Source: Candidatus Eiseniibacteriota bacterium (GTDB taxonomy: Bacteria > Joyebacterota > Joyebacteria > Joyebacterales > Joyebacteraceae). From it: a stretch of 64,000 nt of DNA. Shown here piece after piece: positions 3,107-54,116 of this stretch. Location of the stretch: NCBI GenBank assembly GCA_043815815.1, contig JBDRIO010000029.1:13650-77649 (forward strand), written 5' to 3'. The notes under the pieces were generated by a model that did not search any database, was not told the DNA's origin, and saw only the letters and a list, made by a program, of their open reading frames with translations. A program made the translations under genes and the position numbers. How positions within the stretch are numbered: the first letter of the stretch is position 1; the number at the start of each line of letters is the position of its first letter.

Positions 3107-3139
3107 CCGACCTTCTTGAGCTGCAAGCTAGCTTAGATC

Positions 3140-3172
3140 GCGGGGCCGCCTCTCGACAGAGGAGCGGCCCCG
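3140..3172 (+). terminator. GC-rich hairpin after cspA-1 lacking a U-tract (partial terminator / RNA stability element)
   Basis: GCGGGGCCGCctctcgacagaggaGCGGCCCCG. The next gene starts 25 nt downstream with an AAGGAG RBS. Confidence 0.35.
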
Positions 3173-3197
3173 TTGCACTAGAGGCCAAGGAGTCCCA

Positions 3198-4703
3198 GTG
3201 AACACCCTTCTGATATACCCCGAGTGTCCGGAAACGTTCTGGAGCCTCACGCACGCGCTCCGGCTCATCAGCAGGAAGGCCGCGGCGCCCCCGCTGGGGC
3301 TGCTGACGGTCGCCGCCATGCTTCCCGGCGATTGGAGGGTCCGTCTGGTCGACCTGAACGTGACCAAGCTCTCCCAGGCCGACCTCGACTGGGGTGACTG
3401 TGCCATGGTAAGCGGCATGATCGTTCAGAGGGAGTCCGCGCGCAAGGTCATCGCTCGCTGCAAGGAGGCAGGCCTCACCGTCATCGCCGGCGGTCCGCTC
3501 TTCTCCACGGAGCACGAGCACTTCGACGGCGTCGATCACTTCGTGCTGGGAGAGGCGGAGGTGACCCTTCGGCCGTTCCTCGCGGATCTCGAGCGGGGGG
3601 AGGCGCGCCGCGTCTATCGTGCGGACGAGTTCGCCGACATGACGACGAGTCCCGTACCTCGCTGGGAGCTCGTGGACCCCAGGCACTACATCTCACGCGG
3701 GATTCAGTTCTCCCGAGGGTGCCCCCGGGACTGCGACTTCTGCGAGGTAACGGAGCTCTTCGGCCATCGCTGGCGAACCAAGACGTCCGCGCAGATCATC
3801 GACGAGCTTGACACCCTCTACCGGCTCGGATGGCGGGGAGTGGTTCCGTTCGTCGACGACAACATCAACGGGAGCCGCAGGCTCCTGCGAGAGACTCTGC
3901 TCCCCGCGCTGATCGAGTGGCGGAAGGGGAAGAGAGGAGTCAGCTTCAGCGCGCAAGCGACGATCGACCTCGCGGATGATCAGGAACTCATGGACATGAT
4001 GGTCCGAGCCGGGTTCGACACGGTGTTCATCGGCATCGAGACGCTTGAGGAAGCGGGCCTGGCGGAGTGCAACAAGCGCCAGAACCGGAACCGCGACCTC
4101 CTGGCCGACGTAAAGAGGATCCAGAGGTCAGGCCTGCAGGTGCAGGGAGGCTTCATCGTAGGGTTCGACAGCGACACTCCTCAGGTCTTCGAGCGGATGG
4201 CGCGCTTCATACAGTCGAGCGGCATCGCGACGGCCATGGTCGGCATGCTTCAGGCTCCCAACGGAACGCCGCTCTACAAGCGACTTGCCCGGGAGGGCAG
4301 GATCCGCCTTCTCGTATCCGGCGACAACTCTGACGGCACGACGAACGTGGTTCCGAGGATGGGCCTCGTGGCGCTCCAGGAGGGCCACAGGAGACTGCTG
4401 CGCGACCTGTACTCCCCGGCGAACTACTATGAGCGTCTGAAGACGTTCCTCCGCGAGTACAGGCCACCACGGACCAGCCCGCGCCTGACCGGTCAGCACG
4501 TTCTCGCGCTCCTGCGGTCCATCTACTCCCTTGCCCTGGCCGGTCGAGAGCACTGGCGCTATCCCGATCTTCTCATGTGGACGCTCTTCCGGAATCCCCG
4601 CGCACTACCCACGGCAGTTGCCCTCGCCATATACGGCTACCACTACCGCCTGCACTACGAACTGGTGACGGGTGCGCCGCTGGTCTCGACGCGCCGCTCC
4701 TAG
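3198..4703 (+). CDS. B12-binding domain-containing radical SAM protein (class B, DUF4070 family)
   Basis: N-terminal cobalamin-binding-like domain; radical SAM CxxxCxxC motif SRGCPRDCDFCEV; C-terminal DUF4070-like region; 501 aa. Confidence 0.85.
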   Translation: MNTLLIYPECPETFWSLTHALRLISRKAAAPPLGLLTVAAMLPGDWRVRLVDLNVTKLSQADLDWGDCAMVSGMIVQRESARKVIARCKEAGLTVIAGGPLFSTEHEHFDGVDHFVLGEAEVTLRPFLADLERGEARRVYRADEFADMTTSPVPRWELVDPRHYISRGIQFSRGCPRDCDFCEVTELFGHRWRTKTSAQIIDELDTLYRLGWRGVVPFVDDNINGSRRLLRETLLPALIEWRKGKRGVSFSAQATIDLADDQELMDMMVRAGFDTVFIGIETLEEAGLAECNKRQNRNRDLLADVKRIQRSGLQVQGGFIVGFDSDTPQVFERMARFIQSSGIATAMVGMLQAPNGTPLYKRLAREGRIRLLVSGDNSDGTTNVVPRMGLVALQEGHRRLLRDLYSPANYYERLKTFLREYRPPRTSPRLTGQHVLALLRSIYSLALAGREHWRYPDLLMWTLFRNPRALPTAVALAIYGYHYRLHYELVTGAPLVSTRRS

Positions 4704-21159: not shown

Positions 21160-21732
21160 ATGGAACTGACGCTGACTATTCTGATCGGACTGGGACTCGC
21201 GGCCGCGTGCGGCTACCGCGTCTTCGTGCCGTTCCTGGTCCTGAGCATCGCCGCCATGTCCGGCCACGTGACGCTGGCCGAGGGGTTCGCGTGGATAGGG
21301 ACCCCGTACGCGCTCGTGGCGTTCGCGCTCGCGACGCTGCTCGAGGTGCTGGCGTACTACGTCCCCTGGTTCGACAATCTCCTCGACACGATATCGACTC
21401 CGGCGGCAGTCGTGGCCGGCGTCATCGTGACGGCATCCGTCGTCGGCGACATGTCGCCGTTCCTCAAGTGGACGCTTGCCGTTATTGCCGGAGGGGGAAT
21501 GGCCGCGGCGGTTCAGACGGCCACGGTGGCGGTACGCGGGACCTCGACGGTGACGACGGGCGGTACCGCGAACCCTCTGGTGTCGACCGGCGAGCTCGGC
21601 GGCTCGATCGTCACGTCGGTCCTGGCGGTCGTTCTGCCGATCGTCGCGGTGGCGATCGTGATCGTCACGCTCGTAGTGAGCGCGCGGATCGTCGGGAGGT
21701 TCAGGAGGCGGAGGTGCGAAGCGCCTTCCTGA
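21160..21732 (+). CDS. DUF4126-like integral membrane protein
   Basis: MELTLTILIGLGLAAACGYRVFVPFLVLSIAAMSGH...; multiple TM helices with Gly/Ala/Val-rich segments. Confidence 0.55.
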   Translation: MELTLTILIGLGLAAACGYRVFVPFLVLSIAAMSGHVTLAEGFAWIGTPYALVAFALATLLEVLAYYVPWFDNLLDTISTPAAVVAGVIVTASVVGDMSPFLKWTLAVIAGGGMAAAVQTATVAVRGTSTVTTGGTANPLVSTGELGGSIVTSVLAVVLPIVAVAIVIVTLVVSARIVGRFRRRRCEAPS

Positions 21733-22591
21733 GCGCGCGCGTGTGCTCGGGCGTCGTGCCGCAACAGCCGCCTATGACCTCGACCCCGAGGTCCAGGAGC
21801 TCCAGGGCCTTCCGCGCCATGAACTCGGGCGTCTCGTTGTAGGTCACCTGTCCGTCGACGAGCTCCGGGAGGCCCGCGTTCGACTGGATGAGCATCGGTC
21901 CGTTGGTGTGCGCGCGGAACTCCCTCGCTATCTCGACCATCTTCTCGATGCCGTTCCCGCAGTTCGAGCCCACGAGGTCCGCGCCGGCGTCTCTGAGTCC
22001 CTCGGCCGCGCTCGGGACGTCGACACCCATGATCGTGTAGAACCCTCTGGGCGTGGCGTCGAACGTCATCGTCGCCATGATCGGGACGTCGGACGAGACG
22101 CCGCGCGCCGCCTCGATGGCGAGCCGCGCCTCCGCGAGGTCCGTCATGGTCTCCACGCAGAGCACGTCCACGCCCGCCTCGACCAGAGCCACCATCTGCC
22201 GCCGGAAGCTCTCGCGCACGTCGTCGGGTGCCGCGTAACCGTACGGTTCGAGCGTCCGGCCGCACGGCCCGCACGAGCCGGACACGTAGGCGCCGTCGCC
22301 CACGACCTCGCGCACCGCGAGGACGGCGGCGCGGTTGATCCCCTCCGTGCTGCCATCGAGTCCGTACGCCGCGAGCTTGAGCGCCGACCCTCCGAACGTG
22401 TTCGTCTGGACGATCTCCGCGCCCGCCTCGAAGTACCGGCCCGCCACGTCGCGCAGGACCTCGGGCCGCAACAGGTTGAACGACTCGGGGCATGCGCCGG
22501 GCTCGAGCCCGTGCGCCATGAGAAAGCTGCCCATCGCCCCGTCGCCGACGAGGACCGGCCCCTCTCTCACGCGTTCCATGAACGGCTGCAT
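21701..22591 (-). CDS. Homocysteine S-methyltransferase domain protein (MetH N-terminal / BHMT-like, zinc-dependent)
   Basis: Pfam S-methyl_trans hallmarks: VGDGAMGS, VQTNTFG, zinc-ligand Cys in GSCGP and IGGCCGTTPEH. Confidence 0.8.
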   Translation of the reverse strand: MQPFMERVREGPVLVGDGAMGSFLMAHGLEPGACPESFNLLRPEVLRDVAGRYFEAGAEIVQTNTFGGSALKLAAYGLDGSTEGINRAAVLAVREVVGDGAYVSGSCGPCGRTLEPYGYAAPDDVRESFRRQMVALVEAGVDVLCVETMTDLAEARLAIEAARGVSSDVPIMATMTFDATPRGFYTIMGVDVPSAAEGLRDAGADLVGSNCGNGIEKMVEIAREFRAHTNGPMLIQSNAGLPELVDGQVTYNETPEFMARKALELLDLGVEVIGGCCGTTPEHTRALRKALRTSAS

Positions 22592-22593
22592 GG

Positions 22594-23226
22594 CTACTCC
22601 ACGAGCGCCTTGACGCGCTCGACGGCGTTCGCGGCGTCGAACCCGTATCCGTCCGCGCCGATCTCCCTGGCGTACTCCTCGGTCACCGGAGCGCCCCCGA
22701 TGATCGTCCTGACCGAACCGTCGAGTCCGTCCTTCTTGAGCAGCTCGACGACCTTCTTCATCGTGGGCATCGTGGTCGTCAGGAGCGCCGACATGCCGAT
22801 GACGTTCGCGCCCGACTCGCGCGCGGCGTCGACGAACTGCTCGGGCGCGACGTCCTTCCCGAGATCGATGACCTCGAATCCCGCGCCGGCCAGCATGATG
22901 CCGACCAGGTTCTTGCCGATGTCGTGGAGGTCCCCCTGAACGGTACCGATGACGACCTTGCCCCTGCTCCGCACGTCGGCCTCGCCAAGGTGCGGCTCGA
23001 GCACCGCCAGCCCGGCGTTCATCGCCCTCGCTGCCAGGAGAACCTCCGGAAGGAAGATCTCGTGCACGCGGAAGCGGTCGCCCACGACCTGCATCCCCGC
23101 GATGAGACCCTCCTCGAGTATCGTCGCGGCCGCGAGCGACTGGTCGAGCGCCGCCTTCGTGAGGGAACGGACCTCGTCGTCCTCGCCCTGCTGCAACCGC
23201 TTGGCTATCTGTGACAGTATCTCCAT
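22594..23226 (-). CDS. Cobalamin-binding corrinoid protein (B12-binding helical cap plus Rossmann domain)
   Basis: DxHxxG motif in GTVQGDLHDIGKN; SxL (MSALLTT); GG (IIGGAP). 210 aa. Confidence 0.85.
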   Translation of the reverse strand: MEILSQIAKRLQQGEDDEVRSLTKAALDQSLAAATILEEGLIAGMQVVGDRFRVHEIFLPEVLLAARAMNAGLAVLEPHLGEADVRSRGKVVIGTVQGDLHDIGKNLVGIMLAGAGFEVIDLGKDVAPEQFVDAARESGANVIGMSALLTTTMPTMKKVVELLKKDGLDGSVRTIIGGAPVTEEYAREIGADGYGFDAANAVERVKALVE

Positions 23227-23269
23227 CGATTCTCCTTCCGGCTGAAACGTGCCGCTCGCGCCGTCCCGC

Positions 23270-24001
23270 TCAGCAGACCCCGGGTGGGTCGTCTCTCATG
23301 GCGCGGATGCGCGCCCGACAGTCCTTCGTCCGGCAGTCCTCGCAGAAGCCGAAGTCGCTCGGGAAGTCGTGTATCGCGGCCGGCCCCATCACCATGACGC
23401 CGGAGATCGACTTCAGGGGCTCCATGAGACAGCTCGCGTTCAGGGAGATGCCTATCTCGCCCGGCTCGAGCGCCGCGAAGAGCGCGCGCTGGCCCGTGAT
23501 GTTCCACCCGCAGTAGCCGGGGCTGTAGCGGAGCAGGCGGGTCCCGGCGCCGGCGACCCCTTCGCCCCTGGCGTCCTCGAGCGCCGCGCGGTCCAGATAC
23601 ATCCCGGCGAGCTCGGTCGCCTCGGACGCGGCCGCGTCGAGCGCCGCTCCGAGAGCGAGCTGCCCCTCGTCGAAGAGAGCGGGTATCCGCTCGGACACGT
23701 CCGCCCCGACCGTCGCCGCGAAGAGGGCCAGTCGCTCGGCCCCGGGGAATACCGCGCGCAGGGGAGAGGGGACCTCGTTGTCTCCGTCGCCCTCGTAGAC
23801 GCGTGTGAACGCGTCCGCGTCGGTCTCAGCGAACATCCCCACCGGCCTGGCTCTGTCCCGGAACTCGTCGAGCGCGCGCGAGAGCACTTCGAGCACACGC
23901 TCTCCGGGCGCGCGGTCGGCCGGAACGCCCATGGCCCTCAAGAGGGCCGCCTCCGAGGGTTCGATGTCCGACGGGGCTATCTCTATGATCCGCTTCTGCA
24001 T
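23270..24001 (-). CDS. Methionine-synthase activation-domain-like protein (AdoMet-dependent reductive reactivation module)
   Basis: RxxxGY AdoMet-binding motif (RYSPGY) as in the MetH C-terminal activation domain. Likely start MQKRIIEIAPSD (ORF track 24055). Confidence 0.55.
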   Translation of the reverse strand: MQKRIIEIAPSDIEPSEAALLRAMGVPADRAPGERVLEVLSRALDEFRDRARPVGMFAETDADAFTRVYEGDGDNEVPSPLRAVFPGAERLALFAATVGADVSERIPALFDEGQLALGAALDAAASEATELAGMYLDRAALEDARGEGVAGAGTRLLRYSPGYCGWNITGQRALFAALEPGEIGISLNASCLMEPLKSISGVMVMGPAAIHDFPSDFGFCEDCRTKDCRARIRAMRDDPPGVC

Positions 24002-24079
24002 CCCTGGGTCTCCGCGGAGCGAGTGGATCGTCTCGCGTCCCGGGCCGCGTCTCACGCAAGAGCCGAGCGCCCGATTCGC

Positions 24080-25537
24080 CTAATCCCGCTCCGGCAGCCT
24101 GTCCATCCCGTGCTTCCGGGCCTCCGCGCTCATTATGTCGCCGAGCTCCTTCTTCGCGTCGTCCGGCAGGCGGGACGGCTCGTACTCGGAGAGGTGGCGC
24201 TTGACCTCGCTCCGCGCTCTCTCTCCGAGCGTGGAGCGGCCCTCTTCCCTCCAGCGCGAGAGGTTCGCGCGCTCGATGACCGGGCCGGGGAAGTAGTGCT
24301 CGCTCTTCAGGTGCTTGCGCGTGTGCTTCGATATGAGCAGGTGCCCGTCCTCGAGCATCTCCACGAAGTGCGGGAGCGCGGGGAAGTCGTCCCTGGGCTC
24401 GATGCCTCGCGCCATGCGCTGGACGAGTCCCGCGATCTCGTTGTCGACGACGAGCTTCTCGGGGCTTATGCAGCTCTCGAAGTCCAGCATGCCTGGGCCC
24501 GACACGCTGTTGATGCCGGAGAGCGCAGCGAGCGTCGCGCCCATCGAACTCTCGAGCCCGGCCTGCGCGTCCAGCGCCTTCGCGTCGGAGAGCCCGATGT
24601 ACGCCTGCGTCGGGAGCCCCAGGTGCTTCCCGATCTCCGCGTAGGCGCAGTCGATCATCTGCGTCTCCACGGCTCCCATCGGGGTCGTCTCGTACCGGAT
24701 GTCGAACGACGCCGGCGAGCCCCCGTAGAGGACCGGACATCCTGGGTTCGCGAGCTGGCTCAGGACGACGCCCGAGAGCGTCTCGGCGGTGTGCTGCACG
24801 AGGCTTCCGACGAGTGTCACCGGCCCCATGAACCCCGAGAGCGGCATCGAGATGTACTCGACGGGGACCGAGTCGGCGGCGCAGTCGAGCAGATTCTGCG
24901 CGGTGACGTCGCTCCACTTCAGGGGCGCGGTGGGACAGGCGGAGAAGATGGTGAGCGGCTTCTGCTTCAGGGCCTCGGCCGAACCGCGGACCGCGAGCTG
25001 CATGTCGCGCATGGCGCCGTACGACTCGATCGTGAACGCGCCCGTGACGACCGGCTTCTCACCCAAGAGCAGGCACAGGAAGAGGCGGTAGCTGTCCTGC
25101 ACGGGCTCCGGAACGTCCCGGCAGATGAAGGCCGTGCTCTGTGCCTCGATGTACTTCATCCTGCTCGTGAGCTTCGTGAAGTCCACGAAATCGCGCGTAA
25201 CCGGCGTGCGCATCTCTCCGGACTCGGGGTCGAGAACGGTGATGCCCGACGACCCGGGCGTGAAGTGAACGTTGTCGCCGGAGAGGTCGTGCGTCTGCTC
25301 GCCGAGGACGTCGTAGAGCGCGAAGCCGGACGGCGCCTTCTTCACCGCGTCCATCACGAGCGACTCGGGGAGCGTGATGCGCCTCGTCGCCTTGTCGATC
25401 CCGGCGCCGTTGTCGGTGAGGAGCGTGGCGGCGTTCTCGTTCTGGACCTTGAGCCCGAGTGTGGCCAGGAGGTGCAACGCCTCGTGCAGGATGCGCTCTT
25501 TGAGAGCGTCGTCAAGGAACTGCAGTCTTGGTCTCAT
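24080..25537 (-). CDS. MttB-superfamily (trimethylamine methyltransferase family, non-pyrrolysine) substrate:corrinoid methyltransferase
   Basis: Full-length similarity to the MttB/MtgB family (PF06253-like; TIM barrel) from MRPRLQFLDDALKERILHEALHLL... onward. No in-frame amber codon. Start ATG at ~25537 (the ORF track's longer 25828 start is unlikely). Confidence 0.8.
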   Translation of the reverse strand: MRPRLQFLDDALKERILHEALHLLATLGLKVQNENAATLLTDNGAGIDKATRRITLPESLVMDAVKKAPSGFALYDVLGEQTHDLSGDNVHFTPGSSGITVLDPESGEMRTPVTRDFVDFTKLTSRMKYIEAQSTAFICRDVPEPVQDSYRLFLCLLLGEKPVVTGAFTIESYGAMRDMQLAVRGSAEALKQKPLTIFSACPTAPLKWSDVTAQNLLDCAADSVPVEYISMPLSGFMGPVTLVGSLVQHTAETLSGVVLSQLANPGCPVLYGGSPASFDIRYETTPMGAVETQMIDCAYAEIGKHLGLPTQAYIGLSDAKALDAQAGLESSMGATLAALSGINSVSGPGMLDFESCISPEKLVVDNEIAGLVQRMARGIEPRDDFPALPHFVEMLEDGHLLISKHTRKHLKSEHYFPGPVIERANLSRWREEGRSTLGERARSEVKRHLSEYEPSRLPDDAKKELGDIMSAEARKHGMDRLPERD

Positions 25538-25745
25538 TGATGGGCTCCTGAAGGTCGGCTCTTCCGCCCCGTTCCCGGGCGCCGCAGCTGGGTCAGAGAA
25601 TTGTCGCACAGTTCCGGTGGGCAATCCAGAGGCGGCATCCTGCCGCCCGTGGATGACCGGACGCCCGATGTCTGCTAGAATCCCACACGTAACGAGCGCG
25701 CGGCAGGGGAAGCGCGCGCTCCCAACCTCCGCAGGGGAGTCACAC

Positions 25746-26645
25746 GTGTTCCCGCACACACTACACGCCGCCCGCCTCCTAGCAGTTGTGGCGCTCACAC
25801 TCATGCTCTGCCCGCCCGACGCCGCCATGGCCCTTCCGGACTACGCCGTCGAGACAGGGCTCGCCTGCGCCGGCTGTCACGAGGACGGCGCCGACGCCGG
25901 CCCTCTGACAGAGCAGGGCATCGCGTTCCTGGCCGCCGGGCACGTTCTTCCGGAAGAGGTTCAGGGTCCCTCGGAACTCGAACTCTGGGTCCGGGGGCTC
26001 GTCAGGTACCTGCACCTGGTGGCGGGGGTCGTCTGGTTCGGGGCGATCGCCTACATCCACCTCTTCACGAAACCGAAGAGCCTGGTCAAGGGACTCCCGC
26101 GCGCCGAGATGCGCCTCGGCTGGGGCTCCATCATCGTCATGGCGAGCACGGGAACGCTCCTGACGGTCTGGAAGGTCGGTTCGGCCGAGGAGCTGTGGAC
26201 GACGTTCTTCGGCGCCGTGTGGATGGTCAAGGTCGCCACGTTCCTCGCGCTCGTCGTGATCGCGACGGTGGCAACGACGGCGCTGAACCGCAGGATGCGA
26301 AGGGACGCAAGCGAAGAAGGTGGTCCCGGAGCGTGCGGCCACATCAGGTTCGCCTTTGAGGGGACCCTGTACGACGCGACCGACAGCAGGTGGTGGAAGG
26401 AAGGCGTCCACGGCGGGAAGCACCGCGCGGGCACCGACCTCACGGCGGCGATGGCAGACGCGCCCCACGGGCCGGAGGTGCTCGACCGAGTGACCGCCGT
26501 GGGCCGCGTTCCCCACGGGTGCTGCGCCACGGCGCCGAGAGCCGCGCGCGCGTTCATCGTGCTCGCCTACGTGAACCTCGCCCTCATAGCCATCGTTCTC
26601 TTCTGCGTCTCGTTCTGGACGTGGGGGCCGGCGGTCGTGGGATAG
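25746..26645 (+). CDS. Membrane protein with signal peptide, CxxCH haem-c-type motif (CAGCH) and several TM helices
   Basis: VFPHTLHAARLLAVVALTLMLCPPDAAMA signal, then GLACAGCHEDGA, then hydrophobic helices (YLHLVAGVVWFGAIAYIHLF...). No clear family assignment. Confidence 0.4.
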   Translation: MFPHTLHAARLLAVVALTLMLCPPDAAMALPDYAVETGLACAGCHEDGADAGPLTEQGIAFLAAGHVLPEEVQGPSELELWVRGLVRYLHLVAGVVWFGAIAYIHLFTKPKSLVKGLPRAEMRLGWGSIIVMASTGTLLTVWKVGSAEELWTTFFGAVWMVKVATFLALVVIATVATTALNRRMRRDASEEGGPGACGHIRFAFEGTLYDATDSRWWKEGVHGGKHRAGTDLTAAMADAPHGPEVLDRVTAVGRVPHGCCATAPRAARAFIVLAYVNLALIAIVLFCVSFWTWGPAVVG

Positions 26646-43159: not shown

Positions 43160-43471
43160 ATGGCCGACAAGGTCCGCAGCACTCCCCGAAGCGCCTCGCC
43201 GAAGTATTGGAGGAAGCCGCTCGACGCCGACAAGATCAAGGTGCCGCACGGCGAACTCCACATACTGGTCGAACGCTGCAAGGGGTGCCAGTTCTGTGTC
43301 GAGTACTGCCCGAGGGACGTCCTCGACATGTCAGAGGACTTCAACCACAAGGGTTATCATTACCCCATCGCCGGGAACGAGAACGGCTGCGTGAACTGCC
43401 GGCTGTGCGAAATGCTCTGCCCGGAGTTCGCCATCTTTTGCCTCGAGGTGGAGGAGGAGGGTAGCGGATGA
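43160..43471 (+). CDS. korD: 2-oxoacid:ferredoxin oxidoreductase delta subunit (2x[4Fe-4S] ferredoxin)
   Basis: CKGCQFCVEYCP and CVNCRLCEMLCP motifs. Stop overlaps the alpha-subunit start (ATGA). Confidence 0.8.
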   Translation: MADKVRSTPRSASPKYWRKPLDADKIKVPHGELHILVERCKGCQFCVEYCPRDVLDMSEDFNHKGYHYPIAGNENGCVNCRLCEMLCPEFAIFCLEVEEEGSG

Positions 43472-44628
43472 GGACGGCTGATCCCAGGGGGGTCTTGACG
43501 GGCGAGCACTACCTCGACGGCGACCACGCGGCGGCGGAAGGCGCGCTCGCCGCCGGCTGTCGCTTCTTCGCAGGCTACCCCATCACACCTTCCACTGAAG
43601 TCGCAGAGAGGATCGCGGCCAGGTTCCCCCGAGTAGGGGGACTTTTCGTGCAGATGGAGGACGAGCTGGCTTCGATGGCGGCGATCCTGGGCGGCGCCTG
43701 GGCCGGCGCCAAGTCGATGACGGTGACGTCGGGTCCGGGGTTCTCGCTCATGATGGAGAACCTGGGGCTGGGGATCATGATGGAGGTCCCGACGGTGATC
43801 GTTAACGTGCAGCGCGGCGGTCCGTCGACCGGTCTTCCGACGCTTCCAGGGCAGGCGGACATGATGCAAGCGCGGTGGGGTTCGCACGGCGACTACGAGA
43901 TCATCGCCGTCTCTCCAAGTTCGCCGCAGGAGGCGTTCGACCACACGATCATGGCGTTCAACTTCGCCGAGAAGTACCGCGTTCCCACGCTCGTAATGAT
44001 GGACGAGTGCGTGGGACACATGACCGAGAAGGTCGTCATCCCCGAGGCGGAGGACATCGAGATCGTCCCCCGCAAGTGGTACGAGGGGAAGAAGGGCGAT
44101 TACCTGCCGTACAAGGCCGACGACGACATGATCCCCTGGATGGTGAAGGCCGGGGACGGGCACAGGTTCCACACGACCGGACTCACGCACGACGAGAGGG
44201 GTTATCCGGTCATGACCGCCGAGTGCCAGGAGGAGTGCGTCGGTCGACTCGTCAACAAGATCCGATCGAGGGTCGACGAGATCGTCGTCCTCGAGGAAGA
44301 GGGGATCGACGGCGCCGACGTGGTCGTCGTGTCGTACGGCATCACGGCCCGGGTCTCGATACCCGCGGTCGAGAAGGCCAGGGCGGACGGCGTCAAGGTG
44401 GGGAGCCTCCGGCTCGTGACGGTGTGGCCGTTCCCGGAGAACCGCATCCGCGAGCTCGCCGGGAAGGTGAAGTCCTTCGTGATCCCGGAGATCAACTACG
44501 GCCAGATCTACTACGAGCTCGAGCGCTGCGCCGGCGGGAAGGCAAGGACCATCCTCGTACCGCACGGCGGCGGGTGGGTGCACGACGAGAAAGACATCTA
44601 CGACGCCATCAAGGAGGGGGCGAAATGA
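43468..44628 (+). CDS. korA: 2-oxoacid:ferredoxin oxidoreductase alpha subunit
   Basis: POR/KOR alpha N-terminal domain: GAxxAGCRFFAGYPITPSTEV, MEDELASMAAILGGAWAG, GPGFSLMMENLG. Confidence 0.9.
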   Translation: MRTADPRGVLTGEHYLDGDHAAAEGALAAGCRFFAGYPITPSTEVAERIAARFPRVGGLFVQMEDELASMAAILGGAWAGAKSMTVTSGPGFSLMMENLGLGIMMEVPTVIVNVQRGGPSTGLPTLPGQADMMQARWGSHGDYEIIAVSPSSPQEAFDHTIMAFNFAEKYRVPTLVMMDECVGHMTEKVVIPEAEDIEIVPRKWYEGKKGDYLPYKADDDMIPWMVKAGDGHRFHTTGLTHDERGYPVMTAECQEECVGRLVNKIRSRVDEIVVLEEEGIDGADVVVVSYGITARVSIPAVEKARADGVKVGSLRLVTVWPFPENRIRELAGKVKSFVIPEINYGQIYYELERCAGGKARTILVPHGGGWVHDEKDIYDAIKEGAK

Positions 44629-45503
44629 AAACCAGGACCCCTGTCGCTCCCGGCCCGCCGCACCCGATGGAAGAACTGCTGCGGATGGACCGCATCCCGC
44701 ACATCTGGTGTCCGACCTGCGGGCTGGGCACGGTCGTCACGGCGTTCGCGGCGGCCTTGGAGAAGCTCGAGATGTCGCTCGATGACGTCGTCGTCGTGTC
44801 CGGCATCGGTTGCACCGGCCGCGTCGCGGGGTACGTCAAGATCGATTCATTCCACACGACCCACGGTCGCGCGATACCCTTCGCGACAGGTATTCATCTC
44901 ACCAACCCGAAGCTCAAGGTCGTCGTCATAAGCGGCGACGGGGACCTCATCTCCATCGGAGGGAACCACTTCATTCACGCGGCGCGCAGGAACGTCGACA
45001 TCACCGTCATATGCGTCAACAACTTCATCTACGCGATGACGGGAGGGCAGGTTGCGCCCACGACGCCGCTGACGGCGAACGCCTCCACGATGCCGTACGG
45101 GAACTTCGAGCGTCCCTTCAACATCCCGTATCTCGCTGAGTCATCGGGCGCGGTCTACGTGGCACGGTGGTCGGCCCTTCACGTGCGGCGACTCACGGCC
45201 GCGATGGCCGAGGCCGTGCAGAAGCCCGGCTTCTCTGTCGTCGAGGTGATCAGTCCCTGCTCCACGCTGTACTCCCGGCGCAACAGACTTGGGACAGGCC
45301 TGGACCTCATGAGGTTCTATCACGACAATTGCGTCATCAAGCACGGCGCCGACACGCGCGGCCTGGACATCGGCTTCCAGGAGGAGATCACCGTCGGCAA
45401 GTTCGTTGATATCGAGCGTCCGACGTACGTGGACGCGATGAACACGTGGTACGGAGAGGTCTTCGGGGACGACTACGAACTCTACGAGGGGTCGGCCAAG
45501 TGA
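44625..45503 (+). CDS. korB: 2-oxoacid:ferredoxin oxidoreductase beta subunit (TPP-binding)
   Basis: WCPTCGLGT, SGIGCTGR, GDGDLISIGGNHFIHAARRNVDITVICVNNFIYAMTGGQ TPP-binding fold. Confidence 0.9.
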   Translation: MKTRTPVAPGPPHPMEELLRMDRIPHIWCPTCGLGTVVTAFAAALEKLEMSLDDVVVVSGIGCTGRVAGYVKIDSFHTTHGRAIPFATGIHLTNPKLKVVVISGDGDLISIGGNHFIHAARRNVDITVICVNNFIYAMTGGQVAPTTPLTANASTMPYGNFERPFNIPYLAESSGAVYVARWSALHVRRLTAAMAEAVQKPGFSVVEVISPCSTLYSRRNRLGTGLDLMRFYHDNCVIKHGADTRGLDIGFQEEITVGKFVDIERPTYVDAMNTWYGEVFGDDYELYEGSAK

Positions 45504-46498
45504 ACGAGATAAGGATCTCCGGATTCGGCGGACAGGGCGTGATCAGATGCGGCTACATCGTGGGCAAGACGGCCGCCATCTTCGACAACAAGCACGCTAC
45601 GTTGACGCAGAGCTTCGGCCCCGAGGCCAGAGGCAGCGCGTGCAGCGCGCAGATCATCGTGGACGACGTTCCGATCCGATACCCGTACCTCACGAAGCCG
45701 GACACGGTGGTCGCGATGTCGCAGGAGGCGTTCGACAAGTTCGGTTCCGACATCACCCCGGGCGGAACGCTGATGATCGACGACGACCTCGTCAAGCCCG
45801 AGAGTCCTCCGAAGGGCTGCAAGGTCTACGCGATCCCGGCAACGAGGATAGCCGAGGGTCTGGGCAACAGGATCGCGGCGAACATCGTGATGCTCGGCTT
45901 CTTCACCGCCGTCACCGACATCATCTCCGTGGAGGCCGCGCGGGACGCCCTCCCGAGTTCGGTGCCTTCCCGCTTCATCGAGCTCAACGAGAAGGCCTTC
46001 GAGGAAGGCTACAGGTTCGGCTCCGAGCTTCTGGGCAAGGAACCCGTGCCGCCGCCGGCCGAGCGCTCCTCGAAGGGCGGCGAGTACAGGGCGTCCAAGG
46101 TCACGACGGCCAAGGCCGGCCGTCGGGCCACGACGCTCGCGCGGGTGAACGTGATGGACGGGGACGCGAGGAAGGGCGCCGCCGGGAAGAGCGCCGCGAA
46201 GTCGGCCGCAAAGGAAGCTGCAGGGGCGGCAATCCCTTCGACCGCGAAGAGGGTCGGGAAGAGGGCGTCCTCGGCGAAGCCCGCGAAGAGGGCCGGGAAG
46301 ACCGCGGCGAAGAAGAAGGCCGGAAAGAGGGCGTCCGCGGCAAAGAAGAAGGCCGGAAAGAGGGCGTCCGCGGCAAAGCCCGGGAAGAAGGCGCCCGCGA
46401 AGAAGGCCGGGAAGACCGCGGCCAGGAAGAAGGCCAAGTCCCCGGCGCGCAAACCTGCCAGGAAGACCGGCAAGAAGAAGTCCCCCGCTAGGAAGTGA
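45500..46498 (+). CDS. korC: 2-oxoacid:ferredoxin oxidoreductase gamma subunit with ~140-aa Lys/Ala-rich histone-H1-like C-terminal tail
   Basis: GTG start overlapping korB stop. Gamma-subunit core [24 protein letters not shown]...[11 protein letters not shown]. Tail ...[12 protein letters not shown]...[62 protein letters not shown]. Confidence 0.8.
46309..46374 (+). repeat. Perfect 33-bp tandem duplication inside the korC tail-coding region
   Basis: gaagaaggccggaaagagggcgtccgcggcaaa x2, encoding [11 protein letters not shown] twice. Confidence 0.8.
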
Positions 46499-46519
46499 GC
46501 GCACGTGTCAGGGGGTACG

Positions 46520-49500
46520 GATGGACAGGGGCGTTCTCGTCATCGGAGGCGGCATAGCAGGCATTCAGGCCGCCCTCGATCTGGCGGACGCGCAGTTCAA
46601 GGTCTATCTCGTCGAACGCGAACCGTCGATCGGCGGGAAGATGGCCCAGCTCGACAAGACGTTCCCGAGCATGGACTGCGCCATCTGAATACTCGGTCCC
46701 AAGATGATGGATGTCGGTCGGCATCCGAACATCGAGCTCTGGACCAACAGCGAGGTTGTTAAGGTCAAGGGCAAGGCCGGGGATTTCAAGGTCAGCGTGC
46801 TCCGCAGAGCGCGGTGCGTCGACGTCGACGAGTGCACCGCGTGCGGGGAGTGCGCCAAGTCGTGCCCCATTGCCGTGCCCAACGAGTTCGACCTGGGATT
46901 GGGCACCCGCAAGGCCATCTACCAGCCGTTCCCTCAGGCGGTGCCGTCCGCCTACATCCGCGACATCGAAACCTGTCTTGGGCACTTCCCGCTGGCCTGC
47001 GGAAGGTGCGCCAAGGCCTGCGAGAAGGGGTGCATCGACTACGACGAGCAGGACGTCGTGGAGGACGTAGCCGTGGGGTCGATCGTCGTGACCACGGGCT
47101 TCGATTTCTACGACCCGGGCGAGGCGAGCGAGTACGGCTACAAGCGCTTCCACAACGTCGTGTCGAGCCTCGAACTCGAGAGGCTCCTCTCCGCGAGCGG
47201 ACCCACGAGGGGCTTCCTCACGCGCTTCACGGATGGCGAGTCCCCCAAGAGGATCGCCTTCATCCAGTGCGTCGGCTCCAGGTGCGTGAAGCGTGACATC
47301 CTCTACTGCAGCCGCATCTGCTGCATGAACGCCGTCAAGGACGCCCTCCTGATCGAGGAGCTCTTCCCGGGCGCAGAGCTGCTCATCTTCAACATCGACG
47401 TGCGCGCCTTCGGGAAGGGCTTCGAGGCCTTCTACCGCCGGTCGCAGGGCAACGCTCAGCTCCGCTATGTGAAGGGCAAGCCCTCCAAGGTGTCCGAGGA
47501 CCCGGACACCGGCCATCTCTTGCTTCACTACGAAGACTCGGTGACCGGCACGATCGAGCACTCCGAGGTCGACATGGTCGTGCTCTCGTCCGCGCTCGTG
47601 CCCTCCGAGGGGACCGCCGGGCTCGCCGAGGTGCTGGGAGTGGGCGTCGCTTCCGACGGGTACATAGAGAGTCGCGACGCCTCGGCCTACCCCCTCGACA
47701 CGACGCGCCCGGGCGTGTACGTGGCAGGTTGTGCGGCCGGGCCCAAGGACATCACCGATTCCGTGGCGGAGGCTTCGGGCGCCGCCGCGCTTGCCGCGTC
47801 GCACGTGCTCAAACACAAGCTCGAAGACACGAAAGTGGAGGTCGAGCAGAGAGACGTCAGCGGTCCTCCGCGCGTTGGGGTCTTCGTCTGTCACTGCGGC
47901 ATCAACATCGGGGGAGTGGTCGACGTCTCCAAGCTGTCCGAGTACGCCGGCACGCTGCCCGACGTGGTCTTCGCCGAGCATCTCCTCTTCGCCTGCGCGG
48001 AGAGCACGCAGAGACAGATACAGGAGCGTGTCGCCGAGCACGACCTGAACAGGGTCGTCGTCGCCGCGTGCACGCCGAGGACGCACGAGCCCGTTTTCAG
48101 GCAGGCGGTGGCCGCGGTCGGCCTGAACCCGTATCTCGTTGAGATGGTCAACATCCGCGACCAGTGCTCGTGGGTCCACGCCAAGGAGCCGGTGGCGGCC
48201 ACCGAGAAGTCGCGCGACCTCGTTCGCATGGCCGTGGCCCGTTCGCGACTCCTCACGCCCCTGTCCGAGAAGGAGCTGGACGTCGGTCACGAGGTGCTCG
48301 TCGTCGGAGGCGGCATCGCGGGCATCGAGACCGCCATAGACCTCTCTCGGAGAGGGTTCTCCGTGCACCTCATCGAGCGCGAGGACGCGCTCGGCGGGCG
48401 GGTGGCAGGCCTGGCGGGAACGTATCCGAGCGGGCGGAGCGGCAGGTCGCTGGTCGACGAGAAGGTCGAGGCTCTGACCGCGACCAAGGTCGACGTCAGG
48501 ACGGGCACCGTCCTCAAGAGCGTCACCGGCTTTGTCGGGAACTTCGAGGCGACGCTGGCGCCGGCGGGCGGCGGCCCGACCGAAACACTGTCCGTCGGCG
48601 CCATCGTCCTCGCCATCGGCGCCGACCTCTACGAGCCCGGACCCGACGACTTCGGCGCCGGTGTCGTGCCGGGCGTCATCCCCAACACCGAGGTCGAAGG
48701 TCTCCTCGAGGGGAAGGGCGCTCCCAAGCTCGGAGGCAAGAAGGTCGAGACGGCCGTCTTCATCCAGTGCGTCGGGTCGCGAGGGGAGAAGGGGAATCCG
48801 GAGTGCTCCCGCTACTGCTGCCAGTCCGCCATCCGTCAGGCGATCGAGCTTCGGAAGCGCGGCGTCGACGTCGTCGTTCTGCACCGTGACGTCCGCGTCT
48901 ACGGCCGCGGGGCCGAGGAGATGTACCGGCGCGCCCGGGGGATGGGCGTGACGTTCCTGGGCTACGACCCGGCCGAGCCGCCCGTCGTCGACCGCGACGG
49001 CGACTCGCTGCGCGTGAGCCTCGCCGTGCCGTCGCGCAACATGACGATCGAGATACCCGCCGACGTCGTGGCCCTCTCGCTGGGCATGGTGCCCAGGAAG
49101 CACGACACGACGGCGATGCAGGAGATGCTCAAGGTCCCGATCGGGAGCGACGGCTTTCTCCTCGAGCGGCACCCCAAGTTCGGCCCCGTCGAGACGAACA
49201 CCGAGGGCGTCTTCCTGTGTGGATGCAGCCAGGCGCCCAAGGACATCGGTGACTCGATATCCCAGGCGTCGGCGGTCGCCTCGAAGATCGGCGCGCTCCT
49301 CGCTCGCGACACGATCACGCTGGAACCGATCGTCTCGGTCGTGAGCGACAGGCTCTGCCGCGCATGCTCGGAGTGCGTGATCGTCTGTGAGTTCAACGCG
49401 ATAGAGATAGGCGAGCTTCCGGACGGGCGGCGCGTGGCGATCGTGAACGAGGCGCTCTGCAAGGGGTGCGGGACGTGCGCCGTGGCATGTCCTAGCGGGG

Positions 49501-49622
49501 CCATCTCGATACGGCACTTCACCGACGAGATGATCGAGACGATGATGGAGGCCTACCTGAGGCCGACCGCTGAGCACGGGTCCGAAGCGTGGCCGGAGAC
49601 GGACGTTGGCGAAACGGGCTGA
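46520..49622 (+). CDS. hdrA: HdrA-like flavoprotein, selenocysteine-containing (in-frame TGA near 46685-46687), double-HdrA fusion with C-terminal 2x[4Fe-4S] ferredoxin
   Basis: N-terminus [22 protein letters not shown]...[10 protein letters not shown]-[TGA][13 protein letters not shown] matches the HdrA DCSMC(I/L)LSPK site, where the second Cys is Sec in known selenoprotein HdrAs. Then a Cys-rich FAD domain, an inserted Fe-S domain ([14 protein letters not shown]...[10 protein letters not shown]), a second FAD domain ([17 protein letters not shown]), then [12 protein letters not shown] / [12 protein letters not shown]. The ORF track only shows the portion after the TGA (46704..49622). Confidence 0.75.
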
Positions 49623-50187
49623 CAGCACGGAGACCGGGCGTGCCTCCGCGAAGGGGACGCGTGCCGGGAGCGCCTCGGGCGGCGCCGGGTCCTCGAACTC
49701 CGGGCGCGGCGCGTTCGAGCCGAGGGTCGTCGCCTTCGCGTGCAACTGGTGCAGCTACCCGGCAGCGGACGCCGCAGGCATCAACAAGATGCAGTATCCG
49801 CCGAACGCGCGGATCATACGCGTCATGTGCGCCGGGCGCATCCACCCCGCGTTCGTTCTGAAGGCTCTCGAGCTCGGCGCAGATGGCGTCCTCGTGTCCG
49901 GCTGCCACTTCGCCGACTGCCACTATCTGTTCGGCGCCAAGCGGGCGGCAGAGCAGTTCGAGAAGACGGCGGAGCTTGTCAGGCTGCTCGGCCTTCCGAA
50001 GGAGAGGGTCCGCTTCGAGCAGATATCCGCCGCCGAGGCGCCGGAGTTCGTGCGCGTGATGCACGAGTTCGTCGAGGACCTGAAGCGACTCGGCCCGAGC
50101 CAGCTCGGCGGGCCCGTTGACGGCGGGAGCCGACCGGGCGACCGCGGGATCGACCTGCCCGGAGTTGTGGGAGAGGAGCGCACGTAG
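49606..50187 (+). CDS. mvhD: MvhD-like protein (methyl-viologen-reducing hydrogenase delta subunit family, [2Fe-2S])
   Basis: [67 protein letters not shown]. Confidence 0.8.
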   Translation: MAKRADSTETGRASAKGTRAGSASGGAGSSNSGRGAFEPRVVAFACNWCSYPAADAAGINKMQYPPNARIIRVMCAGRIHPAFVLKALELGADGVLVSGCHFADCHYLFGAKRAAEQFEKTAELVRLLGLPKERVRFEQISAAEAPEFVRVMHEFVEDLKRLGPSQLGGPVDGGSRPGDRGIDLPGVVGEERT

Positions 50188-50189
50188 CC

Positions 50190-51338: not shown

Positions 51339-51392
51339 CGGAGCGTGTCTCGTGCTGTGAGTCGTACCTCGCGTAGTGAACGGAGGAGCGTG

Positions 51393-53979: not shown

Positions 53980-54116
53980 CGCCGCCCCTTTGCGCATGAA
54001 GTGAAGAGCGACGGCCGGGAGCCGGCCGGGGTCATCCCGGCGGGCCCAGGTCCACGCGCGCCGCGAGCAGCCACTGCCGGTCGGGCGGCGCGAACGCACG
54101 ACCCGGGGGAGCGAAG

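Follow-up and report, generated by a model that had tools for sequence, protein, structure and literature searches.

Full-length MetH combines Hcy, pterin (PF00809), B12 and activation modules in one polypeptide. In T. maritima the activation protein stands alone, and TM0269 is said, by Huang et al. in 2007, to reactivate T. maritima MetH in trans. In Phaeobacter, stand-alone PF02574, corrinoid and pterin proteins make up a working methionine synthase (PMC5764234). The related shared-corrinoid system MtgBCDE of Ruegeria pomeroyi was shown genetically in 2025, its corrinoid protein MtgC being needed both to demethylate glycine betaine and to make methionine (PMC12478193). Williams et al. (2022, Environ Microbiol, PMC9324843) have reported, from Electryoneota MAGs and 'diverse bacteria', a cluster with the same four components as the operon described here. 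Its MttB homologue likewise falls neither within MtgB nor within MttB, and they put forward the same hypothesis, namely corrinoid-dependent methionine synthesis from a methyl donor left unspecified. The idea is therefore not new.

Gene content of the operon

The window, the whole 64-kb stretch of DNA that was analysed, contains four tightly packed minus-strand ORFs at 21701-25537, with the following features:

25545..25548, minus strand: GGAG Shine-Dalgarno-like element, 7 nt spacing to the MT1 ATG (read directly from the sequence)
24080..25537, minus strand: MT1, non-pyrrolysine MttB-superfamily methyltransferase, 485 aa, predicted methyl-donor:corrinoid methyltransferase (PF06253)
24590..24592, minus strand: CTC codon, Leu316, aligned with pyrrolysine 334 of M. 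barkeri MttB (alignment to 7XCL, codon check)
23270..24001, minus strand: Act, stand-alone MetH activation (AdoMet-binding) domain protein, TM0269-like, 243 aa (PF02965, 1J6R, Foldseek)
23513..23530, minus strand: RYSPGY (RxxxGY AdoMet motif), Act residues 158-163 (sequence motif)
23318..23344, minus strand: C220-x2-C223-x4-C228 tail motif of Act, candidate metal/Fe-S ligands together with C164 (invariant in alignment A2)
22594..23226, minus strand: CoP, corrinoid protein, B12-binding cap and Rossmann domain, 210 aa (PF02607, PF02310)
22915..22932, minus strand: DLHDIG (DxHxxG), CoP residues 99-104, His101 being the lower axial ligand motif (sequence motif)
21701..22591, minus strand: MT2 (HcyMT), zinc-type homocysteine S-methyltransferase domain protein, 296 aa, MetH-N-terminal-like (PF02574)

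The intergenic gaps, in the gene order MttB-Act-CoP-HcyMT, measure 78, 43 and 2 nt. Inside the four-gene cluster no terminator-like site was found. The operon proposed in a preliminary description of this DNA is upheld, and the linkage, as reported below, is conserved across phyla. The four gene identities given there also stood, with Pfam matches for all four proteins and intact motifs. No SAM or cobalamin riboswitch was found upstream of the operon, either in the window or in nine related loci, so regulation lends no support to a methionine-biosynthetic role.

MT1 matched the PF06253 MTTB profile over residues 3-470 with 271.5 bits (cutoff 25), which places it in the superfamily. A protein of a Candidatus Eisenbacteria MAG, listed at NCBI as 'trimethylamine methyltransferase family protein', has the same sequence (100% identity). 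The 485-aa start is consistent with the NCBI gene call and with homologues. By alignment, MT1 is about equally distant from M. barkeri MttB (31% identity) and D. hafniense MtgB (28%). Assignment as pyrrolysine MttB (TIGR02369) was rejected, as the score of 357.7 bits lay below the cutoff of 525. The Pyl334 position is occupied by a sense codon, with no in-frame UAG, and the Leu is invariant in the orthogroup (alignment A1). The pyrrolysine-supporting residues G110 and Y364 of MttB aligned with S96 and S346, neither being conserved.

Act scored 26 bits against PF02965, marginally over the cutoff of 25. A phmmer search matched residues 6-199 to TM0269 (PDB 1J6R, E = 2e-8), and with the AlphaFold2 model (pLDDT 93) the top 19 Foldseek matches in the PDB were all MetH activation domains (TMt 0.85 to 1J6R). 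The proposal that gene 23270-24001 is a MetH-activation homologue is thus borne out at the level of sequence and modelled fold, with AdoMet binding as a prediction only. Cys164 (23510-23512, minus strand) directly follows RYSPGY and is invariant; SPGxCGW was present in 71/71 Act homologues of related loci, and the C220/C223/C228 tail motif, invariant in alignment A2, in 70/71. TM0269 has Gly at the C164 position, and its phmmer alignment ends at Act residue 199, before the tail cysteines. The four cysteines C164, C220, C223 and C228 could form a metal or Fe-S site.

CoP matched PF02607 and PF02310 with 74 and 101 bits, respectively, as a methyltransferase-type corrinoid protein. Among solved structures it scored 187 bits with Moorella 1Y80, 162 with MttC (7XCN_M) and 110 with the MetH B12 domain, and it is thus nearer to methylotrophic corrinoid proteins, of the MttC/MtgC type, than to MetH. 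The top NCBIfam match was MtgC_2, at 221 bits (cutoff 370). As CoP fell under the cutoffs of all specific NCBIfam corrinoid-protein models, no named subtype was assigned.

MT2 scored 219.8 bits against PF02574. Its motifs NCG (Cys211) and GGCCGTTPEH (Cys276/277) aligned with Cys207/272/273 of T. maritima MetH, the zinc ligands of that enzyme, and E147 aligned with E146 of the same protein. The T. maritima MetH Hcy domain (1Q7M) gave 166.8 bits, compared with 71 for BHMT and 43 for YagD. Assignments as BHMT (NF005718, 212 bits, cutoff 338) and MmuM/YagD (NF007020, 84 bits, cutoff 215) were both rejected as below cutoff. As judged from these scores, MT2 is a MetH-type Hcy domain, closest to MetH N-terminal domains.

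Full-length MetH (TIGR02082 / PRK09490) was rejected as a description of the locus, since three separate proteins match their own segments only, far below the cutoff of 1010. The label 'MetH with its methyl-donor module swapped', used in the preliminary description, does not hold for CoP, which is of MttC/MtgC type. The module is a chimera, rather than MetH with one module swapped.

Conserved linkage across phyla

The cluster is real and widespread. A search for MT1 orthologues, by scan of species-representative genomes, confirmed at least 578 matching stretches. From about ten phyla 80 loci were kept, of which 64 had enough downstream sequence to be informative; MT1 orthologues were 62-86% identical. 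The order MttB-Act-CoP-HcyMT, on the same strand, was found in 54 of the 64, from Eisenbacteria, Phycisphaerae/Planctomycetota, Gemmatimonadota, Acidobacteriota, Zixibacteria, Fibrobacteraceae-labelled MAGs, Aegiribacteria, Ignavibacteriaceae, Elusimicrobiota, Cloacimonadota and Deltaproteobacteria. Because order and strand recur to this extent, the four-gene set is not a chance grouping. The ten deviating loci comprised four without HcyMT, three with Act only, two without detectable Act and one with CoP only. No other gene family recurred beside the cluster, the commonest real neighbour family occurring in 6/80 loci.

More distant MttB relatives were also instructive. For one of them (46% identity) the genes are arranged differently, yet HcyMT and Act are again linked to it, indicating that the linkage survives rearrangement. 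Another (44% identity) lies in a locus CoP-MttB-nitroreductase-URO-D. URO-D is the family of MtaA/MtbA-type MT2 enzymes, and its presence there suggests that HcyMT fills the MT2 slot of a modular system.

Methyl donor and proposed methyl transfer

An N-methyl donor is used by every characterised PF06253 member (PMC13080624, PMC9842639). In MtgB, glycine betaine is held by Y97 and F356 through cation-pi contacts and by R312 and H348 through its carboxylate; R312, the contact for the acidic substrate group, is shared by MtcB, MtpB, MthB and MtyB (PMC13080624). The preliminary description had placed the MttB homologue in the glycine-betaine, proline-betaine and carnitine family, and the active-site residues speak against this. 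In the alignment, Y97/R312/H348/F356 are replaced by S96/Q311/gap/E354, so that none of the four betaine-binding residues is kept, and with 28% identity assignment as MtgB was rejected. Q311 is invariant in the MT1 orthogroup, and most wider relatives have Q or H at this position. Its replacement of the conserved Arg led us to reject, by residue comparison, the MtpB/MtcB/MtyB/MthB quaternary-amine type. As neither MttB- nor MtgB-type active-site residues are conserved, the donor is probably not a carboxylate betaine. The aligned pocket contains an invariant acidic pair, D352/E354, and a cationic N-methyl compound lacking carboxylate and phosphate groups is the most likely donor.

We consider it reasonably probable that the operon specifies a cobalamin-dependent methyl-transfer system, complete in its three components and accompanied by a repair factor, that would make methionine from a methylated compound without folate. 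MT1 would bind a small methylated compound and hand one methyl group on to CoP, at its Co(I) corrinoid, giving CH3-Co(III). Methyl-CoP would then dock on MT2, where a zinc-activated homocysteine thiolate would take the methyl group to yield methionine and Co(I). When the cofactor is oxidised to Co(II), Act would bind S-adenosylmethionine and remethylate the cobalt reductively in trans, with one electron from flavodoxin or ferredoxin, possibly via its own Cys4 metal site. The net reaction would convert methyl donor and homocysteine to demethylated donor and methionine, with no folate intermediate.

Folate may not really be bypassed if CoP is shared, and this is the foremost of the alternatives, though an unlikely one. 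An unlinked pterin methyltransferase would shuttle methyl groups between CH3-THF and CoP, methionine would normally come from CH3-THF, and the MttB homologue would mainly feed folate-linked C1 metabolism. This would agree with R. pomeroyi, where mutation of mtgC or mtgD causes methionine auxotrophy and inability to grow by glycine betaine use, and where mtgC lies apart from mtgD and mtgE (PMC12478193). It would also agree with the four loci that have no HcyMT in the cluster and the four more that have Act only or CoP only, and inspection of the source genome covered 64 kb. However, no PF00809 pterin-binding gene was found in the cluster or in that 64-kb window, nor did one recur within 7 kb of the cluster in the 80 loci, and the four-gene set is kept as a compact unit across phyla. 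Reactivation would proceed via a MetH-type SAM domain, as opposed to the RamA/DUF1638 pair of the Ruegeria/Phaeobacter system; no RamA/DUF4445 gene was found in the 64-kb window or as a recurrent neighbour family in the 80 loci.

It is distinctly improbable that the same chemistry serves catabolism, stripping methyl groups from an abundant substrate. Homocysteine would then be a sink recycled via the SAM cycle, akin to the role of BHMT in the first step of betaine catabolism, and the methionine would not be for biosynthesis. Canonical full-length MetH was reported in the same MAGs as the cluster of Williams et al. (PMC9324843), so the module need not be the principal methionine synthase, and related MttB enzymes are catabolic (PMC13080624). 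In one Acidobacteriota locus a dimethylglycine/sarcosine-dehydrogenase-like gene lies right after CoP, but this adjacency is a single case and is convergent. The linked betaine transporter raised in the preliminary description did not emerge, as neither a transporter nor downstream catabolic genes were consistently linked to the cluster in the 80 loci. Reductive reactivation at the expense of SAM, moreover, is typical of MetH, a low-flux biosynthetic enzyme, whereas the catabolic systems of MttB type rely on RamA, which is ATP-dependent.

Slightly more doubtful again is a donor other than an N-methyl amine, such as CH3-THF or some other methylated pterin, or else a compound with an O- or S-methyl group. 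The cluster would then be a split MetH of the ordinary kind, with a donor module that is not homologous. The N-methyl donors of all characterised PF06253 enzymes argue against it, and D352/E354 fit a cationic amine better than an anionic folate. That HcyMT is an incidental neighbour, a corrinoid-independent SAM/S-methylmethionine:homocysteine methyltransferase (YagD/MmuM- or BHMT-like) merely downstream, is very improbable: such enzymes occur among PF02574 proteins, and its top NCBIfam match is the N-terminal domain of YitJ type, for which the donor is only tentatively established, but the gene lies 2 nt from CoP, is linked in 54/64 loci and in the rearranged relative, and scores far higher with MetH Hcy (167 bits) than with BHMT or YagD while under the BHMT and MmuM cutoffs. 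HcyMT thus groups with neither BHMT nor YagD/MmuM, and neither of the two conditions under which the preliminary description would have been rejected was borne out.

Comparison with known systems

The proposed system resembles several described ones in part. T. maritima TM0268 MetH and TM0269 share with it the stand-alone activation protein, Act being homologous to TM0269 in sequence and fold. The T. maritima MetH Hcy domain is the top solved-structure match of HcyMT, and transfer from methyl-Co(III) to a zinc-thiolate would be expected for both. TM0268, however, fuses Hcy, pterin and B12 domains and uses CH3-THF, whereas in the window operon Hcy and B12 are separate, the pterin domain is lacking, an MttB-family gene is linked instead, and Act has four invariant cysteines. 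In the MtgB/C/D/E system of Ruegeria pomeroyi and the three-part MetH of Phaeobacter inhibens, a PF06253 enzyme, a corrinoid protein and a PF02574 enzyme are likewise proposed around one carrier (PMC12478193, PMC5764234). There the pterin protein MtgD is required for methionine, most of the genes lie apart from one another, and a RamA-like protein together with DUF1638 carries out reactivation; the window operon is compact, with no pterin gene and a SAM-type activation protein. Ruegeria MtgB acts on glycine betaine, whereas the window enzyme has a non-MtgB active site.

The same MT1-CoP-MT2 logic is found in Desulfitobacterium hafniense MtgB-MtgC-MtgA (glycine betaine:THF) and Eubacterium limosum MtpB/MtcB/MtyB/MthB, where MT1 is likewise a PF06253 enzyme and the corrinoid protein closely resembles CoP. 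Their MT2, however, is a THF methyltransferase, activation is by RamA, and Y97/R312/H348/F356 are all replaced in the window MT1. In the methanogen system MttB-MttC-MtbA (trimethylamine:coenzyme M), M. barkeri MttB is the closest solved relative of MT1 (196 bits) and MttC the second-best solved match of CoP. The methanogen MT2 is also a zinc thiol methyltransferase, so homocysteine would take the place of coenzyme M in the window system. It belongs to the URO-D family, however, whereas the window MT2 belongs to PF02574; methanogen activation is by RamA, and MttB has pyrrolysine, G110 and Y364 where MT1 has Leu316, S96 and S346. BHMT and the folate-independent 'core' methionine synthases MesA-D reach the same outcome, methionine without CH3-THF as direct donor, with corrinoid proteins as the supposed methyl source of MesA and MesB (PMC7857596). 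Unlike the proposed window system, BHMT is cobalamin-independent and binds betaine itself, and the Mes enzymes are MetE-like, not PF02574, with no MttB partner.

The account by Williams et al. (PMC9324843) contains no biochemistry, active-site analysis or Act cysteine motif. The four invariant Act cysteines are a new detail; otherwise there is no substantive difference from that cluster, of which the window holds an Eisenbacteria instance.

Operon layout and genomic surroundings

Four consecutive open reading frames were read from the sequence on the minus strand at 21701-25537, separated by intergenic gaps of 78, 43 and 2 nt.

Genes of the operon and cysteine sites of the activation protein
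24080-25537, minus strand: MT1, MttB-family methyltransferase, 485 aa; full-length PF06253 (MttB family), 271.5 bits
23270-24001, minus strand: Act, MetH-type activation protein, 243 aa; PF02965 at 26 bits, barely passing the cutoff of 25
23510-23512, minus strand: C164 of Act, directly after the RxxxGY AdoMet motif (RYSPGYCGW)
23318-23344, minus strand: C220-x2-C223-x4-C228 tail of Act, invariant cysteines
22594-23226, minus strand: CoP, corrinoid protein, 210 aa; B12 cap and Rossmann domains with DLHDIG
21701-22591, minus strand: HcyMT, homocysteine methyltransferase (MT2), 296 aa; PF02574, 219.8 bits

A GGAG sequence lies 7 nt ahead of the first ATG, that of MT1. The scan for terminators returned no terminator-like site at all, hence none inside the operon, and the promoter scan returned a single weak promoter-like site, on the plus strand. 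The flanking genes are unrelated to the operon: one flank holds a convergent DUF4126 membrane protein, a 5′-nucleotidase and an M1 peptidase, the other a divergent CopD-like membrane protein, an endonuclease I and a hydrolase. The CopD-like-domain gene (25374-26645, plus strand) has its 5′ intergenic region in common with MT1, encodes an N-terminal CAGCH motif of the CxxCH haem-c-like kind, and was not recurrent in related loci.

Rfam at gathering thresholds identified no riboswitch in the whole window, and a permissive riboswitch scan of the upstream kilobase gave no match. Nine related loci searched with Rfam contained no SAM or B12 riboswitch, just a tRNA and, within a coding region, a match to PYLIS_3, the mttB pyrrolysine insertion sequence. 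When 30 further ORFs of the window were scanned with Pfam, no linked genes for transport or catabolism emerged.

Elsewhere in the 64 kb lie genes for secreted hydrolases with FlgD_ig tails, for a B12-binding radical SAM protein and a 2-oxoacid:ferredoxin oxidoreductase, and for an Hdr/MvhD-like set. The radical SAM protein (3132-4703, plus strand), with B12-binding, Radical_SAM and DUF4070 domains, adds a second cobalamin-dependent enzyme to the window, which fits an organism that uses corrinoids. At 43465-53831 (plus strand), 2-oxoacid:ferredoxin oxidoreductase subunits are followed by HdrA-like (Pyr_redox_2 and Fer4), HdrB/C-like (CCG and Fer4) and MvhD/FlpD-domain proteins, a run that suggests that this Eisenbacteria genome encodes an anaerobic, ferredoxin-based and possibly electron-bifurcating metabolism. 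The greater part of an 1136-aa protein at 54000-57410 (plus strand) is without a Pfam match; only GlnD_UR_UTase (residues 875-1013) and, at the C-terminus, a 4Fe-4S dicluster domain were recognised.

Identity of the four proteins

HcyMT scored 167 bits against the homocysteine domain of T. maritima MetH, 71 against BHMT and 43 against E. coli YagD, and fell under the NCBIfam cutoffs of BHMT and MmuM. The YagD/BHMT type, an alternative raised in the preliminary description, was ruled out by these low scores. Cys211, Cys276 and Cys277 of HcyMT align with Cys207, Cys272 and Cys273 of T. maritima MetH, the zinc ligands of that enzyme. CoP scored higher against the Moorella corrinoid protein 1Y80 (187 bits) and MttC (162 bits) than against the MetH B12 module (110 bits).

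The assignment of Act, whose failure the same description had named as a ground for refutation, stood. Residues 6-199 align with TM0269, which serves T. maritima MetH as a stand-alone activation protein (phmmer, E = 2e-8), and a Foldseek search with the AlphaFold2 model (pLDDT 93) returned exclusively MetH activation domains among the top 19 PDB matches. The module is of chimeric ancestry, combining a methylotroph-type CoP with a MetH-type MT2 and activation protein.

Act has four invariant cysteines. TM0269 has Gly where Act has C164, and the phmmer alignment ends at Act residue 199, ahead of the tail. Among related loci, the C164 motif was present in 71/71 and the C-x2-C-x4-C tail in 70/71. 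[quoted passage not shown] The four cysteines may bind a metal or an Fe-S cluster next to the AdoMet pocket, with structural zinc no less likely than Fe-S. No mention of this Cys4 motif was found in the literature searched.

MT1 scored below the equivalog cutoff of the pyrrolysine MttB (357.7 versus 525 bits), and a sense Leu codon stands where pyrrolysine would be encoded; with no UAG, identity as a pyrrolysine MttB was ruled out. Two relatives have solved structures, MttB of M. barkeri (196 bits, 31% identity) and MtgB of D. hafniense (182 bits, 28% identity). Because these two are themselves just 31% identical, MT1 represents a third lineage, as placed by residue mapping and pairwise scores.

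Structure and mutagenesis have defined the glycine-betaine site of MtgB as Y97 and F356 (cation-pi) with R312 and H348 (carboxylate), R312 being common to MtcB, MtpB, MthB and MtyB (PMC13080624). Y97, F356, R312 and H348 align in MT1 with S96, E354, Q311 and a gap, and an MtgB-type betaine enzyme was ruled out by the absence of these binding residues. In MttB, G110 and Y364 support pyrrolysine (PMC9842639); they correspond to S96 and S346 in MT1, and the sole residue kept is Met249, as M231. Across the orthogroup, residues S96, Q311, L316, S346, D352, F353, E354 and C356 do not vary, and a like pocket signature, in which residue 311 is Q or H, reaches relatives of about 35% identity. The predicted pocket is neither MtgB-like nor MttB-like. 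By inference it has lost both basic residues for an acidic group and gained two acidic ones, which argues for a cationic donor rather than a carboxylate or phosphate betaine.

Conservation and variation of the cluster

In a scan that took one genome per species, at least 578 stretches encoding MT1 orthologues were confirmed; orthologues are 62-86% identical across phyla. The best 80 of these loci, with MT1 copies 62-84% identical to the query, were fetched for context analysis. They came from Eisenbacteria, Phycisphaerae and other Planctomycetota, Gemmatimonadota, Acidobacteriota, Zixibacteria, Fibrobacteraceae-labelled MAGs, Aegiribacteria, Ignavibacteriaceae, Elusimicrobiota, Cloacimonadota and Deltaproteobacteria. 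Gene order was counted in the 64 loci with enough downstream sequence.

Gene order in 64 loci
MttB-Act-CoP-HcyMT, same strand: 54/64 (median gaps 15, 46 and 18 nt)
HcyMT missing: 4/64
Act alone kept: 3/64
Act not detectable: 2/64
CoP alone kept: 1/64

All-against-all clustering of flanking ORFs from the 80 loci revealed no recurrent family beyond the four genes. Genes inserted or substituted in variant loci were unrelated (GNAT/methyltransferase, PMT-like membrane protein, FHA, GH-like), with one exception, a DMGDH-like gene. This occurs in an Acidobacteriota MAG whose cluster lacks HcyMT (locus L061, 10081-12630): a convergent 850-aa dimethylglycine/sarcosine-dehydrogenase-like gene with DAO, FAO_M, GCV_T and GCV_T_C domains directly follows CoP. 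As one case, this adjacency is a weak hint at N-methylglycine metabolism.

The PYLIS_3 match lies within the MttB-homologue coding region of a Deltaproteobacteria MAG (JACQOU010000266; locus L066, 7948-8045) and scored 38.2 bits, where the gathering score is 38. It begins at the pyrrolysine-equivalent codon, a sense Leu, in an ORF without a stop, and probably reflects leftover coding similarity rather than recoding.

More distant relatives, from a search of 1.8 billion cluster representatives, form a continuum from 60% down to 30% identity, along which contexts shift. One relative of 46% identity retains linked HcyMT and Act in a different gene order. Another, of 44% identity and with the same pocket signature, lies in a CoP-MttB-nitroreductase-URO-D arrangement (locus L084, 961-4823, logan:SRR11061214_6850; also locus L083), URO-D being the MtaA/MtbA family of MT2 enzymes. 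The partner in both loci is a thiol methyltransferase of that family, not a homocysteine methyltransferase. Further relatives adjoin a corrinoid protein, an MFS transporter or a Na_H_antiporter-family protein. The changing contexts, with a URO-D partner in a sister clade, indicate a modular MT1-CoP-MT2 system in which HcyMT fills the MT2 position. The four-gene form is confined to a single well-conserved orthogroup together with at least one rearranged sister branch.

At 34% identity, an MttB-family gene occurs in what looks like a phage genome (L086 6001-7431; L087 5925-7355). Dozens of small ORFs on the same strand surround it, along with genes for an AcrVA2-like and a DUF7736 protein, and CoaBC-like flavoprotein/DFP genes precede it.

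Proposed route to methionine and comparison with known systems

In the proposed route, MT1 would transfer a methyl group from the donor to Co(I)-CoP, and HcyMT would pass it from CH3-Co(III)-CoP to zinc-bound homocysteine, yielding methionine. Act, with AdoMet and one electron, would repair Co(II)-CoP. We consider it fairly probable, from the gene content and by analogy with characterised systems, that methyl transfer to methionine proceeds in this way, with no pterin methyltransferase. MetH, MetE, a pterin-binding (PF00809) protein, a RamA-like gene (RamA being the activator in other corrinoid systems) and a betaine-type transporter were absent from the 64-kb window. The main rival is a hub like that of Ruegeria, in which MtgC is needed for both glycine betaine demethylation and methionine synthesis (PMC12478193), here served by an unlinked pterin protein; we regard this as unlikely. 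Canonical MetH has been reported in Electryoneota MAGs carrying the cluster (PMC9324843) and, together with the absence of a SAM or B12 riboswitch, weakens a purely biosynthetic role for the proposed route.

A more detailed reading is speculative, and we would be surprised if all of it held. The operon would form a self-sufficient, folate-independent methionine synthase, in which MT1 demethylates a cationic amine without an acidic group (e.g. choline, protonated trimethylamine or tetramethylammonium), without pyrrolysine, via an acidic Asp352/Glu354 pocket. Act would be a new MetH-type reductive activase with its own Cys4 [4Fe-4S] electron-entry site (C164 and C220-x2-C223-x4-C228) near the AdoMet site.

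If the predicted chemistry is true, many uncultured bacteria, among them Eisenbacteria, Phycisphaerae, Gemmatimonadota, Acidobacteriota and Zixibacteria, can make methionine directly from a methylated compound, environmental or intracellular, and vitamin B12, without methyl-tetrahydrofolate. This would be one more folate-independent methionine synthase, and would broaden what is known of B12 demand in sediments and soils. The 'mttB' genes of MAGs, commonly taken as evidence of trimethylamine use, would need rereading; for those reported in Zixibacteria and Desulfobacterota MAGs, a recent proposal is that they supply methyl groups to mercury methylation (PMC12484752). High orthologue conservation and a complement of just four genes make the cluster a practical target for heterologous reconstitution.

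The finding is real, and the preliminary description, which saw a MetH with its methyl-donor module swapped and folate bypassed, read it well. It is a further member of a kind already described. Cluster and interpretation were published in 2022 as a short genomic hypothesis (PMC9324843), the only work on this cluster in the literature searched, where no experimental study was found. A corrinoid protein common to MttB-family enzymes and methionine synthesis was demonstrated genetically in 2025 (PMC12478193). Specialists who know both papers will not be surprised; the route to methionine is tractable and widespread. Added here are the breadth and strength of synteny, an MT1 pocket unlike those of MtgB and MttB, the chimeric ancestry, alternative MT2 partners in sister clades and the Cys4 motif of Act.

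Each in-trans step has a precedent. TM0269 reportedly reactivates the T. maritima MetH, TM0268, in trans (PMC2203375). In Phaeobacter, separate PF02574, corrinoid and pterin proteins constitute a genetically proven methionine synthase (PMC5764234), and the Ruegeria MtgC supplies the third case. Compared with the Phaeobacter and Ruegeria systems, the present operon has no pterin methyltransferase, a MetH-type activation protein replaces RamA/DUF1638, and MT1 belongs to an uncharacterised clade.
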